Source: an uncultured Arcobacteraceae bacterium
Lineage (GTDB): Bacteria > Campylobacterota > Campylobacteria > Campylobacterales > Arcobacteraceae
NCBI GenBank assembly: GCA_964022095.1
Contig: CAXHZO010000003.1
Location: forward strand, 64,001 to 128,000
Reading direction: 5' to 3'
DNA: 64,000 bases
In this document: positions 44,740 through 50,236 of the stretch, in pieces
How the letters are laid out: each line of letters opens with the position of its first letter
Numbering within the stretch: the stretch's first letter is position 1
Notes under the pieces: model-generated
Told to the model about the DNA's origin: nothing
Database searches by the model: none
Seen by the model: the letters and a program-made list of their open reading frames with translations, nothing else
Made by a program: the position numbers and the translations under genes

Positions 44740-46590
44740 CTATTCCTCTATGTTATTAAAATAATTATATATAACTATTGCATCTTTTTCATTTAAAACA
44801 TTTTTTAATTCTTCTGCTGATGCATTTTTGATTTTTTCAAACTCACCAAAGTAAAGAAGTAGTTTTTTTACTTTTGCTTCACCTATACCTTTTATTTGTA
44901 AAAGTGAAATTTGCTTGTCTTCTTTTCTTTTTTGTTTCTTATGATAGTTTATTACAAATCTATGAGACTCATCTCTTTGTCTTTGTACAAATTGTAATCT
45001 TTGATCACTAGGAAGTAATTTTAGTGATTTAAATTCACCACTTGACGTTTTATAGTGAACTATATCATTTGCTTTACCTTTAGCTCTGTGAGCTTTAGCA
45101 TCAACTTTCTCTTTTGCTATTGCAATTATATCTAAATTTACTCCGACAGATTGGACAATATCATATGCTAATTTTAATAAAGTCTCTCCCCCATCAATCA
45201 CCCATAAATCTGGTGCAGGGTTCTTTTCAAAGCTTTCAACTCTTCTCATTAGCATCTCTCTCATTTGAGAGTATTCATCTTTTGATTCTAAATTATAATG
45301 TCTAAACTGCTTTTTATCCCAACCATTTACTTGTTCATTCCAAACTACCATTGCTCCAACGGTTGCTTGTCCCATCATATGTGAGTTATCAAAACTCTCT
45401 ATTAAATATGGATTTACATTTAGATTAAATAGTTTTTTTAATTCATCATAAATTGAAGTTTGGTTTTTTGTTGAGTCGATTCTTAGAAGTTCATTACAGT
45501 TGTTTATTGCAATTTGAACAATATCTTTTTTCTTGTCTTTTTTTGGATTAGTAATTTTTATTTTTTTACTAAATCTAGCATATAAAAAATCTTCTAATTC
45601 TTCTTTATCTTCTAATTCAATTGCCGTTAAAACTTCTTTTGGAAGTAGGGGAATTTCATTATCATAATAGTTTATTATTGCTCTTTTATATGCTTCTTGG
45701 TAGTCAAAGTCACTATTGTCTTCTAGATTATCAATTCTTAAAAAATCATGGCTTGAAGAAGTTAATTTTCCATCTCTAATAAACATTCTAACTACAACTG
45801 CTTTTTTATTTGAAGTTGTAATTGCGAAGATATCGATATTTTCATTTGTAGCTAAATCCATACCTGACTTGATTTGGGACTTTTCTATAGTTTTAATTCT
45901 ATCTCTTAATTTCATGGCATCTTCAAATCTAAACTCTTCTGAGTCTTGCATCATCTTTTCATTTAGTTTTGTGATTAGTTTGGATTTGTTATAGATATAA
46001 CTTAGTGCTTCTTCAACTATTTTTGAATATTCACTAGTTGATATTTTACCTTCACAAGGAGCATGGCATCTTTTTATTTGGTGAAAAAGACAAGCTTTTT
46101 TCTCTTTTATACAAGATTTTTTTTGAACCAAAGGTACTATCTCATAAATACTATCTAACATATCTCTAGCACCAGTTGAGTATGGCCCAAAATATTTTAG
46201 ATTTTTGTTTTTATGAACACGTCTTGTTATTTCAAGTCTTGGAAATAGTTCATTATTATCTAAATAAATATATGGATATGTTTTATCATCTCTTAATAAT
46301 ATATTGTATTTTGGTTTTAATTGTTTTATCAATGAATTTTCAAGTATAAGTGCATCATGTTCATTTGGAACTACAATCCATTCTAAGGTTTGAACTTCAC
46401 TTATCATTTTATAAATTCGAGGGCTTAATTTATCTGAGGGTAAAAGTTTTGGAGTAAATTTGAAGTATGATTTAACTCTATTTTTTAATACTTTAGCTTT
46501 TCCTACATATAATAAATGCCCATCTTTATTAAAATATTGATAAACACCTGCATCATTAGGTAGTTGCTTTAACTTTTCTTCTATATTCAT
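44740..46590 (-). CDS. uvrC: Excinuclease ABC subunit C
   Basis: GIY-YIG (GVY...[15 protein letters not shown]), FDNSH, IDGG, RDESHRF, HhH. Confidence 0.97.
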
Positions 46591-46689
46591 TTTGGAATAT
46601 TACCCTAATATCTTTTAAATATAATAATATTAATAAAAAGTTGTTTATTGTAAAATGATATTTAAAATAAAATTAACTAAGAGATTTAA

Positions 46690-47376
46690 ATGCCAGGAAG
46701 ATTAGCAATATTTGATGATAAACAATTTAAACAAGATGTAGTAGAATTCATTAAGCATGATATGGTTAATGAATTGAATCCAAAATATAATATTCCTCCT
46801 ACTATGCCAATTCCAACATTACTAAATTCTGGGGATTATTTATATGCTCACTTTGGGTATTTACCTTCATGGGCAAAAGATAAAAAAAGTATGAATATAA
46901 ATGCAAGAAGTGAGTCTATTTATGAAAAAAGAACTTTTAGAGACTCTTTTAAATTTAAGCGTTGTATTATTCCCATAAATGGATTTTTTGAATGGGAAAT
47001 TGAAGATAAAGAAAAAACGCCGTATTTTATAAAAGATAGTATAAATGATTATTTAGCAGTTGGTGGAATTTGGGATGAGTATTTTGATAGTGAATTAAAT
47101 ATGAATATCGTTACTGTTGCATTAATTACATGTGATGCAAATGAAAAGTTAGGGAAAATACATCATCGTATGCCAATTGTTTTAGAAAAAAAAGATTTTA
47201 AAACATGGCTGTATAGTGATGATTTAAAAGAACTTAATTCTTTGTTTAATATTTACCCAAGTGAGAAACTTGAACTTTTTACTGTCTCATCAAATGTTAA
47301 TAAAGTTTCATTTGATGAGATTTCTTGTATTTCAAAAGTTCAAGAAGTTAAAGTTGGACAACAATCTCTTTTTTAA
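46690..47376 (+). CDS. SOS response-associated peptidase (SRAP/HMCES/YedK family) with Pro in place of Cys2
   Basis: YNIPPT, INARSE, RCIIPINGFFEW, IHHRMP, VSSNVN; N-terminus is ATG CCA GGA AGA (MPGR). Confidence 0.9.
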   Translation: MPGRLAIFDDKQFKQDVVEFIKHDMVNELNPKYNIPPTMPIPTLLNSGDYLYAHFGYLPSWAKDKKSMNINARSESIYEKRTFRDSFKFKRCIIPINGFFEWEIEDKEKTPYFIKDSINDYLAVGGIWDEYFDSELNMNIVTVALITCDANEKLGKIHHRMPIVLEKKDFKTWLYSDDLKELNSLFNIYPSEKLELFTVSSNVNKVSFDEISCISKVQEVKVGQQSLF

Positions 47377-47918
47377 TTGTTTAATAGTTTTAAAATATCA
47401 TCTTCTATTGACATAGGATTAGTTGTACTTCCAAATCTATCAACAACATTACCCTTTTTATTTATTAAAAATTTTGTAAAATTCCATTTAATATCTTCAG
47501 TACCTAAAATACCTGGTTGTTTCGTTTTTAAAAATGTATAAAGTGGCGATTCGTTTTCTCCATTTACATCAACTTTTGAAAACATATCAAAGTTTACACC
47601 ATAAGTTAGTCTACAAAACTCTTTTATTTCTTCATTTGTTCCTGGTTCTTGGTTTGCAAATTGATTTGAAGGGAAACCTAAAATCATAAACTCTTTATCT
47701 TTATGCTTTGCATAAAGATTTTCTAAATCTTTGTATTGACCAGTAAAACCACATTTACTAGCAACATTTACAATAAGCAATACTTTACCTTTATATTTAG
47801 AAAGACTTATTTCTTTTCCATCTATATCTTTTACTGAAATATCATATAAATTCATACTTTTTTCCTTTGAAATTAAAGAAGTTACTAACAGAAAAATAGA
47901 AACTATAATTTTGAACAT
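47373..47918 (-). CDS. Glutathione peroxidase family protein with signal peptide
   Basis: VNVASKCGFT, GFPSNQF..QEPG, IKWNFTKFL; AAGGA RBS before the hydrophobic N-terminus. Confidence 0.92.
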   Translation of the reverse strand: MFKIIVSIFLLVTSLISKEKSMNLYDISVKDIDGKEISLSKYKGKVLLIVNVASKCGFTGQYKDLENLYAKHKDKEFMILGFPSNQFANQEPGTNEEIKEFCRLTYGVNFDMFSKVDVNGENESPLYTFLKTKQPGILGTEDIKWNFTKFLINKKGNVVDRFGSTTNPMSIEDDILKLLNN

Positions 47919-47997: not shown

Positions 47998-48879
47998 TTA
48001 TATCTCTTCTGTTAGAGTATATTTTTCTATTAACTCTTGAAATCTTTCATCATCAATAATATCAAAGAAGAACTTATCTTTTTGAAGTTTTTCAACATAT
48101 TGTTCACTTAACTCAAGAGCTTTTCCTAAGTCTTCAATACAGTAATCAATTTGTGCTAAAGTATAGTGAACTTTTGCTCTTTGGTAAAATGCATTTGAGA
48201 ATTGATCATCAATTTTAATAGCTTGATTTACTAAGCTTAGTGCCCAATTCGCTTCATCTAATTTTAAAACAGCTTCTGCTTTATAAGTAAGTGCTTCAAC
48301 ATCATCAGCACTTAAATTTAAAATTTCATCATAAATTTCAATTTTACCTAGTGTTGTTGACTCTTTAGATGCTCTCATCCAAAGTGAATAAATAGTATTT
48401 GTTCGTTCAATATTTTTTTGATTTTCTACTACTTGTCTTGATCTTTTTTCTAAGTCTTCTTCAAAAAGGTTTAATCTATCTTCATAATTAGAAATAGTAT
48501 CAGATATTTTTACATCAATATCTGCTCTTACTTTTTTATTAATATCTTTGATTGAACTCCAACCCATTAAAACTAAAAAAGATGAAGCAGCTGCAATAAT
48601 ATAAAACATATTATTGATTGTTGAAGTTGCATAGTTGATTACATTATTTGACATTTCAATCTCTTTTTTTGCTAAAGTTTGATGTAATTCAACTTTTAAA
48701 TTTCTATTCTCTTCTCTTAATGTTTTTAATTCATTTAAAATGTAGTTTTCTACAAATGGGTTGTAAAGTGGTTTTTCTAAACTATTTAATTTTTTATCAA
48801 TCTTATCTTTTGTTGTTGTTTGGTTTGCAAATATAAATTGCACAGACAGGATTAATAAAATCATAAATAGTTTTTTCAT
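47998..48879 (-). CDS. Membrane-anchored TPR protein
   Basis: Signal peptide, coiled coil, one TM helix, C-terminal TPR repeats. Confidence 0.75.
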   Translation of the reverse strand: MKKLFMILLILSVQFIFANQTTTKDKIDKKLNSLEKPLYNPFVENYILNELKTLREENRNLKVELHQTLAKKEIEMSNNVINYATSTINNMFYIIAAASSFLVLMGWSSIKDINKKVRADIDVKISDTISNYEDRLNLFEEDLEKRSRQVVENQKNIERTNTIYSLWMRASKESTTLGKIEIYDEILNLSADDVEALTYKAEAVLKLDEANWALSLVNQAIKIDDQFSNAFYQRAKVHYTLAQIDYCIEDLGKALELSEQYVEKLQKDKFFFDIIDDERFQELIEKYTLTEEI

Positions 48880-48880
48880 A

Positions 48881-50236
48881 TCAAAGGAGCTCTTCTTTCA
48901 GTGTTTTTAGTGCTATATCTGAAACATTTTGAGAAACACCTATATGAAATGAAATCTTTGATGGACTCATATCAAACATTTCAAAAGGAATATTCTTTTG
49001 CTTTAGTGCAGTTATAGCATCAACAATAGCGAATGAATTTTGTTTTAATCCAATACCAACTAGTGTTAAAATTGAGATATTATAGTTAACATTTACTTCA
49101 TCGGTTTTTAATCTTCTCTCAATTTGTCTTCTAAGATTGTTAATTTTACCTTTTAAGTCCTCTTGATCAACTAATATTGCAATATCATCTTTATCCGTTG
49201 GGTAGTGATAAGTATTAATATTAAAATCTTGAAATATCTTAAGTAGTTCTGCGCTAAAGCCAACTTCTTCGCCTAACATATCTTTTTGGATATGAATTGA
49301 AGCCATATTATCAAGTTTTGCAATTCCTACTAAATCTTCCATTGGAACTCTTTCACTTAAAATTAGTGTTCCTTCATGAGCAGGATTATTTGTATTTCTA
49401 ATATTAATTGGAATTTTACTTTTTTTACAATTTAACATTGCATTAAAATGGAATACATTAAAACCTTTTGAACTAAGTAATCTTAATTCTTTAAAAGTTA
49501 GTCTTGGAATTACTTTTGAATCTTCAACAACTCTTGGATCTGTTTCATAAACACCATTTGTATCAGTCCAGTTTTCATAAATATCAGCATCAAGTGCATA
49601 AGCTAACTCTCCACCTGTTAAGTCACTTCCTCCTCTACTCATAACTGCAATTTTATCTTGTTCATTTATTCCATAAAAACCTGGAACTAAATATATTTCA
49701 TCTTTATCAAAAGTGAAGCTATTTTCAATATTTTTGTGTGTTTTATATGTTACTTTTCCATTTGTTAAACAATCACTTAAAATAAAACCAAACTCTTCAG
49801 GTAACATAAGTTTTGTTTTTAATCCAACACTATTCATGTAAGATGTAATAACTTTAGAATTAAAGTGCTCACCTCTTGATAAAAAAAATGCCACTCTTTC
49901 TTTATCTTTTAATTTACAACTTTCTAAATCTTTTTTTAAAGTCTGTACTATGTCTTTTTTATCAATATTTAAATCAGTACAAAGTTTCTCAAATTTTTTA
50001 AGTATTGCTTCTTGTGACTCTTTTGGTGAAATTAATATCTTTTGACTCTCAAAATGTTCACCATAAGTTGCAAGGTTTAATAAGTGATCTGTAATTTTTT
50101 CTTGATGTGTTTCATCTCTACCAGGAGCTGATACTACTATTACTTTTCTTTGTTCATCACTTTTTATAATGTTCACTATTTTTTTTATTTGTAAGGCATC
50201 TTTTACTGAACTTCCTCCAAATTTACATACTTTCAT
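48881..50236 (-). CDS. ask: Aspartate kinase of the ectoine cluster
   Basis: KFGGSSV, VVSAPG, SRGGSDLT, ENWTDTNGVY..DPR; located in the ect operon. Confidence 0.93.
   Translation of the reverse strand: MKVCKFGGSSVKDALQIKKIVNIIKSDEQRKVIVVSAPGRDETHQEKITDHLLNLATYGEHFESQKILISPKESQEAILKKFEKLCTDLNIDKKDIVQTLKKDLESCKLKDKERVAFFLSRGEHFNSKVITSYMNSVGLKTKLMLPEEFGFILSDCLTNGKVTYKTHKNIENSFTFDKDEIYLVPGFYGINEQDKIAVMSRGGSDLTGGELAYALDADIYENWTDTNGVYETDPRVVEDSKVIPRLTFKELRLLSSKGFNVFHFNAMLNCKKSKIPINIRNTNNPAHEGTLILSERVPMEDLVGIAKLDNMASIHIQKDMLGEEVGFSAELLKIFQDFNINTYHYPTDKDDIAILVDQEDLKGKINNLRRQIERRLKTDEVNVNYNISILTLVGIGLKQNSFAIVDAITALKQKNIPFEMFDMSPSKISFHIGVSQNVSDIALKTLKEELL

Follow-up and report, generated by a model that had tools for sequence, protein, structure and literature searches.

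We analysed a window of 64,000 nucleotides from an uncultured Arcobacteraceae bacterium (contig CAXHZO010000003.1 of assembly GCA_964022095.1); "the window" stands below for this whole stretch, and positions are counted within it. At 46690..47376 it carries a gene of the SRAP family, the family of E. coli YedK and human HMCES, whose second codon specifies a proline (Pro2) in place of the cysteine (Cys2) that serves as the family's nucleophile. Aravind et al. (2013, PMC3765255) describe the SRAP cysteine as "absolutely conserved" and "always the second amino acid". The gene starts at 46690 with ATG CCA GGA AGA (MPGR), as had been read in an earlier note made from the DNA letters alone. Because an in-frame TAA (46687-46689) directly precedes this ATG, no longer reading with a Cys start is possible, and a Cys start hidden upstream is thereby ruled out. 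The features of the gene are listed here with the corresponding YedK residues, as mapped by a HMMER alignment; the "Pro clade" is the set of 117 Pro2 proteins described further below.

46690..47376, plus strand: SRAP-family gene, Pro2 variant (MPGRLAIF...), 228 amino acids (aa), from the open reading frame (ORF), the Pfam match (PF02586, expectation value (E) 9.4e-53) and an AlphaFold2 model
46693..46695, plus strand: codon 2, CCA (Pro), replacing the Cys2 nucleophile; Pro in 57/58 Arcobacteraceae genomes with a readable N-terminus
46900..46908, plus strand: N71-A72-R73 (YedK N75 and R77), contacts to the abasic (AP) site and phosphate; N and R each 117/117 in the Pro clade
46984..46995, plus strand: F99-F100-E101-W102 (YedK W103, F104, E105, W106), catalytic Glu and one pocket residue; E101 and W102 invariant
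47122..47133, plus strand: L145-I146-T147-C148 (YedK I147, V148, T149, A150), pocket Ile-to-Leu change, conserved Thr and clade-specific Cys148, from alignment counts
47161..47175, plus strand: H158-H159-R160-M161-P162 (YedK H160 to P164), catalytic His, phosphate-binding Arg and pocket Pro; H158, R160 and P162 each 117/117 in the Pro clade

By homology and by fold, the product belongs to the SRAP family, to which the earlier note had assigned it. Its sole Pfam match, PF02586, spans the full protein (profile positions 1-214 of 214; 179.3 bits for a cut-off of 27.1); the YedK-type NCBIfam model PRK09951 matches below threshold (62.8 bits versus a cut-off of 349). The AlphaFold2 model, built on an alignment of 95 sequences, has a mean predicted local distance difference test score (pLDDT) of 93.9 and a predicted template modelling score (pTM) of 0.89. 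Foldseek returned 21 PDB matches at E <= 0.001, and the 18 that are listed are all SRAP structures, with template modelling (TM) scores of 0.65-0.85. Homology with YedK and HMCES (PDB 6NUA, 6KBZ, 6OOV) is full-length and the fold is the same, at TM 0.75-0.80: 0.75 for the YedK-DNA cross-link (6nua), 0.76 for the Schiff base of the YedK C2A mutant (8d2m) and 0.79-0.80 for HMCES (6oov, 6oeb). The solved structures nearest in sequence are BT_1218, HMCES and YedK. BT_1218 from Bacteroides thetaiotaomicron (2f20) is the closest by both sequence (E 2e-25) and fold (TM 0.85); it is an uncharacterised structural-genomics protein, and the alignments begin at its residue 23 or later, which leaves its residue 2 outside them.

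Neither the sequencing nor a second gene copy accounts for the proline. DNA sequenced independently in another study gave a contig (X4, record 6) that spans 46557-47257 with 0 differences, codon 2 included, and Pro2 is conserved across 57 genomes; a sequencing or assembly error, which the earlier note had already thought unlikely, is ruled out. The window's genome, 99.99% complete, holds a single SRAP gene, so the Pro2 form is not a side paralogue; no second, canonical SRAP paralogue was found there. Two possible RNA runs gave contigs over the neighbouring uvrC and peroxidase genes and none over the SRAP gene, which proves nothing on expression.

The Pro2 start is shared by nearly all close relatives. 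A word-indexed search returned 486 relatives, and we examined the best 120 clusters (formed at 90% identity; 67-100% identical to the query), whose sources are named Arcobacter, Poseidonibacter or Arcobacteraceae. Far from all carrying Cys2, 115 of these 120 clusters start [M/L]PGR, a share well in excess of chance; the other five comprise two calls that are short at the N-terminus and three longer ones, within which [M/V]PGRL occurs. Across 151 Arcobacteraceae genomes, PF02586 has 60 matches, spread over 59 genomes and over 9 of the 22 genera, and inspection of all 60 gave an [M/L/V]-P-G-R start in 57 of the 59 SRAP-bearing genomes. Three genomes (G124, G095 and G115) yield SRAP fragments only, each at a contig end, the fragment of G095 being C-terminal. 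The lone Arcobacteraceae genome with a Cys2-type SRAP, G088 (L179, G088:C33:533-1579), has a protein of a different sub-lineage (MCGRIDFHD..., similar to P0133), in which similarity is lost past about residue 125 and the frame goes on as a hydrophobic tail; the gene appears rearranged or truncated.

Several signs of selection accompany this conservation. The start codon of the Arcobacteraceae Pro2 genes varies (ATG in 42, TTG in 14, GTG in 2) and always stands directly 5' of the Pro codon, which fixes the position of the N-terminus. Codon 2 itself turns over synonymously: in 29 orthologues, taken by a strict motif filter from 34 loci, all four Pro codons occur (CCT 14, CCA 8, CCC 5, CCG 2). 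The ratio of nonsynonymous to synonymous substitution rates (dN/dS), calculated by the Nei-Gojobori method (NG86), has a median of 0.23 and a range of 0.07-0.48 in the 215 of 406 pairs with dS < 1.5; dS is near saturation in many pairs, which makes the ratios rough, and none is near 1. Full-length open frames are kept down to 43% identity and in at least 9 genera. The Pro2 clade is under purifying selection; the earlier note had raised this question, together with that of whether the Pro2 proteins form a clade at all.

They do. An exhaustive search of representatives at 50% identity returned 20,064 relatives at E <= 0.001, of which the best 150 were classified: 134 start with [M/V]C, two begin with Pro, namely P0121 (47% identity to the query) and P0122 (43%), eight are long calls with an internal MC[GA]R or VCGR, and six are N-terminally short or unclear. 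The tree that we then computed, without alignment columns 1-3, samples the 117 Pro2 proteins at every sixth entry and adds P0121 and P0122, making 22, next to the first 70 of the 134 Cys2 proteins. All 22 Pro2 rows fall on one branch (Shimodaira-Hasegawa-like approximate likelihood-ratio test, SH-aLRT, 97), nested among the Cys2 sisters P0123, P0125/P0141 and P0126; in the P0125 cluster, one member bears the source name Sulfurimonadaceae/Thiovulaceae. The stem of the Arcobacter clade thus saw a single change from Cys to Pro, and identity within the clade has since fallen to about 43%. Outside Arcobacteraceae, a search of 301 Campylobacterales genomes with P0122 gave six matches in four families, all starting MCGR; one of them (L308, G347:C1:698828-700143) is a frameshifted pseudogene lying in two frames with in-frame stops. 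A metagenome-assembled genome labelled "Campylobacterales bacterium" (L034) has a VPGR member. Among the 80 matches listed from a search of genome contigs for related loci, most are distant Cys2 proteins, with 68 classed by motif as Cys and three as Pro; one of the three Pro calls (L087) is an upstream artefact with MCGR downstream, and MCGR also lies downstream in L047 and L103, labelled S and A; two further N-termini are cut and five loci have no ORF by the motif filter.

Pro2 SRAPs also occur elsewhere. We scanned metagenomes with a pattern that asks for Pro only, M-P-G-R-[F/Y] followed by Y-N-[I/V]-A-P at SRAP spacing, and that excludes the Arcobacter clade, which has Leu5. The scan gave 35 loci (L117-L151), with 24 full-length SRAP-like ORFs in 12 lineages below 85% identity, after exclusion of 10 cut or short reads and of L124, in which SRAP motifs are absent. 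The lineages are GC-rich, and several were found again in different samples. N71, R73 and E101 are kept in 11 of the 12 and H158 in nine; single lineages have lost the His (to S, Y or R), the Glu (to V), or the Asn and Arg together. The equivalent of YedK P164 is Gly in 5/12 (HxRMG versus HxRMP), for Pro in 136/136 Cys2 proteins, and that of I147 is Phe or Thr in 3/12. A further tree combined 60 Cys2 proteins with 11 from the Arcobacter clade and the 12 metagenomic Pro2 proteins. Parsimony counts 8 Cys/Pro changes on it, a soft figure, the Cys2 rows having been picked for their relationship to the query rather than to the metagenomic Pro2 proteins; if one considers only the well-supported branches, at least 2 changes are required, and the Arcobacter clade remains apart (support 95 and 96). 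Other Pro2 lineages exist in metagenomes, and at least two origins of the replacement are supported. Scans of viral contigs for residue 2 yielded no Pro and no Ala, against Cys in at least 120 cases, which leaves no basis there for comparing replacements.

Apart from residue 2, the catalytic and DNA-binding residues are those of a canonical SRAP. Conserved across the 117 Pro2 and 134-136 Cys2 proteins are G3, R4, N34, P37, N71, A72, R73, E75, E101, W102, T147, H158, R160, M161 and P162. The catalytic set Asn75/Glu105/His160 is present as the invariant N71, E101 and H158, encoded at 46900-46902 (NARSE motif), 46990-46992 (GFFEW motif) and 47161-47163 (HHRMP motif); the three motifs are intact, as the earlier note had remarked. 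In the alignment of the query's relatives N71 is invariant and R73 nearly so. The residues of the groove for single-stranded DNA (ssDNA), R4, P40, R77, W106, T149 and R162 in YedK, are kept as R4, P37, R73, W102, T147 and R160; in YedK, R77A, T149A and R162A abolish ssDNA binding, and mutations of R4, P40, N75 and W106 reduce it (PMC6821365). With P162 in the place of P164, the query keeps the equivalents of R4, P40, N75, R77, E105, W106, T149, H160, R162 and P164 and so shares its groove and catalytic residues with YedK and HMCES.

What differs, besides the nucleophile, is the pocket. The thiazolidine ring of YedK sits in a pocket of W103, I147, T149 and P164 (PMC6821365), whose equivalents in the query are F99, L145, T147 and P162; F99 is also the common residue in Cys2 proteins. 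Position 145 is Leu in 115 of the 117 Pro-clade proteins, including the early-branching P0121 and P0122, and Ile in 118/136 Cys2 proteins and in all six of the nearest Cys2 sisters checked. Because Leu is found clade-wide, P0121 and P0122 included, and Ile in the nearest Cys2 sisters, the pocket appears to have been adjusted on the same branch as the nucleophile switch. Further residues specific to the clade are L5, K14, N69 and C148, and F55 is common to the Pro2 clade and its Cys2 sisters. Position 148 is Cys in 116/117 of the Pro clade versus Thr in 95/136 Cys2 proteins; Cys148 as a replacement thiol is disfavoured, the equivalent residue being Ala150 in YedK and Val in HMCES, and the cysteine being absent from the early-branching P0122.

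The surroundings of the gene in the window comprise:

44740..46590, minus strand: uvrC, 616 aa, divergent neighbour (Pfam GIY-YIG, UVR, UvrC_RNaseH, UvrC_RNaseH_dom)
46591..46689, no strand: AT-rich divergent intergenic region of 99 bp between the uvrC and SRAP start codons (from sequence and ORFs)
47373..47918, minus strand: glutathione peroxidase gene, convergent, overlapping the SRAP stop codon by 4 bases (PF00255, E 1.9e-46)

The 99-bp region shared with uvrC, to which the earlier note had drawn attention, is real; the link itself is weaker than implied there, as only six of the 33 other related loci (L013, L017, L019, L023, L026, L027) have uvrC next to the SRAP gene, and uvrC as a conserved functional partner is rejected on this count. 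Eight of the 33 have a peroxidase gene no more than 1.5 kb from the SRAP gene. At other loci the gene is flanked by those for histidine kinases, aat, msrA, arginase, GGDEF/EAL proteins and the like, and the neighbourhood appears to offer no firm functional partner. In 7 of the 12 loci of one Arcobacteraceae genus (g12), namely L003 (791-1477), L006, L016, L021, L024, L009 and L008, the gene immediately upstream, in the same orientation as the SRAP gene, is aat (PF03588, leucyl/phenylalanyl-tRNA-protein transferase), which in L003 and L021 overlaps the SRAP start by 16 bases; the meeting of an enzyme that modifies N-termini with a protein that depends on its own may be a coincidence. Repair genes were each seen once in 16 loci beside a Pro2 SRAP: an xth-like Exo_endo_phos gene downstream (L008:2520-3305), RecO_N_2 (L002:2227-2880) and RmuC (L021:2206-3633). 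In the window, the peroxidase gene and an ORF of 451 aa (48881-50236, minus strand) flank a 293-aa ORF (47998-48879, minus strand) that has a hydrophobic N-terminus and no match in Pfam at E <= 1e-5. Over 46400-47600, a promoter-consensus scan gave 8 sites versus 9.1 expected from shuffles, and a terminator scan found none.

No match to LexA_DNA_bind was found in the window's genome, so that SOS regulation of the SRAP gene is ruled out and the SOS association of YedK/HMCES does not extend to it. The Fpg/Nei glycosylase family (PF01149) has no match in that genome, nor in any of the 151 Arcobacteraceae genomes; Arcobacteraceae thus seem to lack both the SOS repressor, as looked for in the window's genome, and the canonical glycosylases with an N-terminal proline, as looked for in all 151. 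The idea of a Pro2 SRAP standing in for a missing Fpg/Nei enzyme is uninformative, PF01149 being absent from all 151 genomes whether they bear a SRAP or not. The window's genome has two HhH-GPD, three Exo_endo_phos and two UDG genes and one Y-family polymerase gene; with the latter present, a missing translesion polymerase is ruled out as a rationale.

As to what a proline would do in this place, methionine aminopeptidase removes Met before Pro, and in Fpg/Nei an N-terminal Pro is the nucleophile attacking C1'. In YedK and HMCES, a thiazolidine arises from the alpha-amine and thiol of Cys2 and C1' of the abasic site in its ring-opened form (PMC9436759, PMC6821365). As Pro2 has no thiol, this stable cross-link cannot close and is chemically impossible for the query, which also departs from YedK in having Leu for I147. 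The best experimental proxy is YedK C2A (PDB 8D2M), thiol-less like the query: through its N-terminal amine it forms a borohydride-trappable Schiff base, solved as 8D2M, and it cleaves DNA by beta-elimination, an AP lyase activity dependent on Glu105; Glu105 is required for Schiff-base formation in YedK, and His160 contributes to ring opening (PMC9436759). C2A is a laboratory mutant with the primary amine of Ala; the query is natural and selected, with the secondary amine of Pro and a co-adapted pocket.

We propose, as the most likely reading, that the natural Pro2 SRAP of this marine Arcobacter-family bacterium acts as an iminium-forming AP lyase, or as a transient binder or processor, on ssDNA, and we consider the chances for and against this proposal to be evenly divided. 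In such a scheme, methionine aminopeptidase would remove Met1 and leave Pro as the mature N-terminus; the mature protein would bind abasic ssDNA in a YedK-like groove; the secondary amine of Pro would attack C1' to give a positively charged iminium of the Schiff-base type, as in Fpg/Nei; and the iminium would either proceed through beta-elimination and cut the strand (AP lyase) or be hydrolysed back. In that case the SRAP protein would process AP sites or hold them transiently rather than serve as a long-lived shield, a proposal consistent with the published behaviour of YedK C2A (PMC9436759). A wider reading is that Pro2 SRAPs in general are natural ssDNA AP lyases or reversible iminium-type handlers, arisen several times by Cys-to-Pro change with re-fitting of the pocket, convergent with Fpg/Nei chemistry on an unrelated fold, and that in Arcobacteraceae the Pro2 form has fully replaced the canonical cross-linker; taken as a whole, we advance it tentatively, leaning somewhat towards doubt. 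The parallel with Fpg/Nei, drawn from general knowledge, is an analogy of chemistry only, in which an N-terminal Pro, exposed by presumed Met removal, serves as the amine nucleophile: the fold is unrelated, the query has no Fapy_DNA_glyco/H2TH match, and Fpg/Nei act on duplex DNA and excise bases.

Several points weigh against this proposal. Iminium formation and strand cleavage by Pro2 SRAPs are both steps that we infer. To cut template ssDNA at a fork would make the very break that canonical SRAPs are thought to prevent, and the benefit of a lyase there is not obvious. The Glu, His, Asn and Arg residues also serve DNA binding and AP-site sensing, so that their conservation cannot tell covalent catalysis from plain binding. 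The gene is dispensable, with a patchy distribution (59/151 Arcobacteraceae genomes, 9/22 genera), and the window's genus is represented by one further genome, G018, whose copy (L178:1501-2064) has lost 40 codons in frame (KLGKIHHRMP...YPSE), among them those of the catalytic His158 and of Arg160; the rest of that copy is open and 60% identical, and it is probably inactivated or re-purposed.

A first alternative is a reversible covalent shield, in which a Pro2-C1' adduct would be held in the remodelled pocket without beta-elimination, masking the AP site as YedK does with easier release. The hypothetical adduct would be a carbinolamine, or a ring-closed N-glycosyl-proline using the sugar's own 4'-OH. 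The full YedK-type groove and catalytic set are kept, a pocket residue changed together with the Cys-to-Pro switch, which suggests that the pocket still holds a ring, and the protective logic of the family would be preserved. From general knowledge, however, the iminium of a secondary amine cannot be neutralised, and in Fpg/Nei it drives elimination. SRAP cross-links are known to be reversible, but thiol-less YedK cleaves DNA instead of shielding it (PMC9436759), and we regard this alternative as unlikely.

Less probable still, in our judgement, is a non-covalent binder of AP sites or ssDNA, in which Pro2 would merely fill the pocket and shielding or sensing would proceed by affinity. The conserved equivalents of R77, T149, R162, R4, P40, N75 and W106 would suit such a role, and YedK C2A does still bind ssDNA, with a dissociation constant (Kd) of 7.9 uM versus 2.2 uM for the wild type (PMC6821365); however, the N-terminal amine lies 3.6 A from C1' in YedK (PMC6821365) and would be hard to keep unreactive toward an aldehyde. 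The strict retention of Pro with synonymous turnover of its codon, and the repeated Cys-to-Pro changes, argue for a specific chemical role.

We hold it very improbable that the protein has a different substrate or role, be it the capture of 3'-unsaturated-aldehyde ends or other aldehyde lesions, or a general-base role of Pro1 like that in tautomerase-type enzymes. YedK also reacts with 3'-PUA ends (3'-phospho-alpha,beta-unsaturated aldehydes; PMC9436759), such ends would be made by the genome's own Nth-type HhH-GPD enzymes, and the widely varying neighbours impose no constraint; however, the sequence gives no hint against internal AP sites, and the groove residues that kink ssDNA are unchanged. 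That the gene is an inactive relic drifting toward loss, as its patchy distribution, the G018 copy without the His motif and the contig-end fragments of G124, G095 and G115 might suggest, is barely credible given the median dN/dS of 0.23, the full-length frames down to 43% identity in at least 9 genera, the use of all four Pro codons and the invariant catalytic residues.

Our full-text literature search, with subscription papers and supplements outside its reach, found no paper on SRAPs with Pro or another non-Cys residue at position 2, and relative to the literature searched the conserved Pro2 SRAP is a new variant of the family. Residue 2 is Pro in 117/117 proteins of the clade, and the query, lacking the Cys2 that defines the YedK/HMCES class, should not be filed as a thiazolidine cross-linker; for Pro2 genes in general, the labels "abasic site processing protein" and "SOS response-associated peptidase" should not be taken to mean "cross-linker". 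In the SRAP field, Cys2 is regarded as invariant and as the core of the family's function, which is to shield abasic sites with a stable thiazolidine; that a Pro2 form occurs in nature, has persisted and has recurred indicates that the SRAP scaffold supports a second chemistry, the nature of which is predicted here from sequence. If that prediction is true, the Pro2 SRAPs would represent a convergent re-invention, on an unrelated fold, of the N-terminal-proline chemistry of Fpg/Nei.

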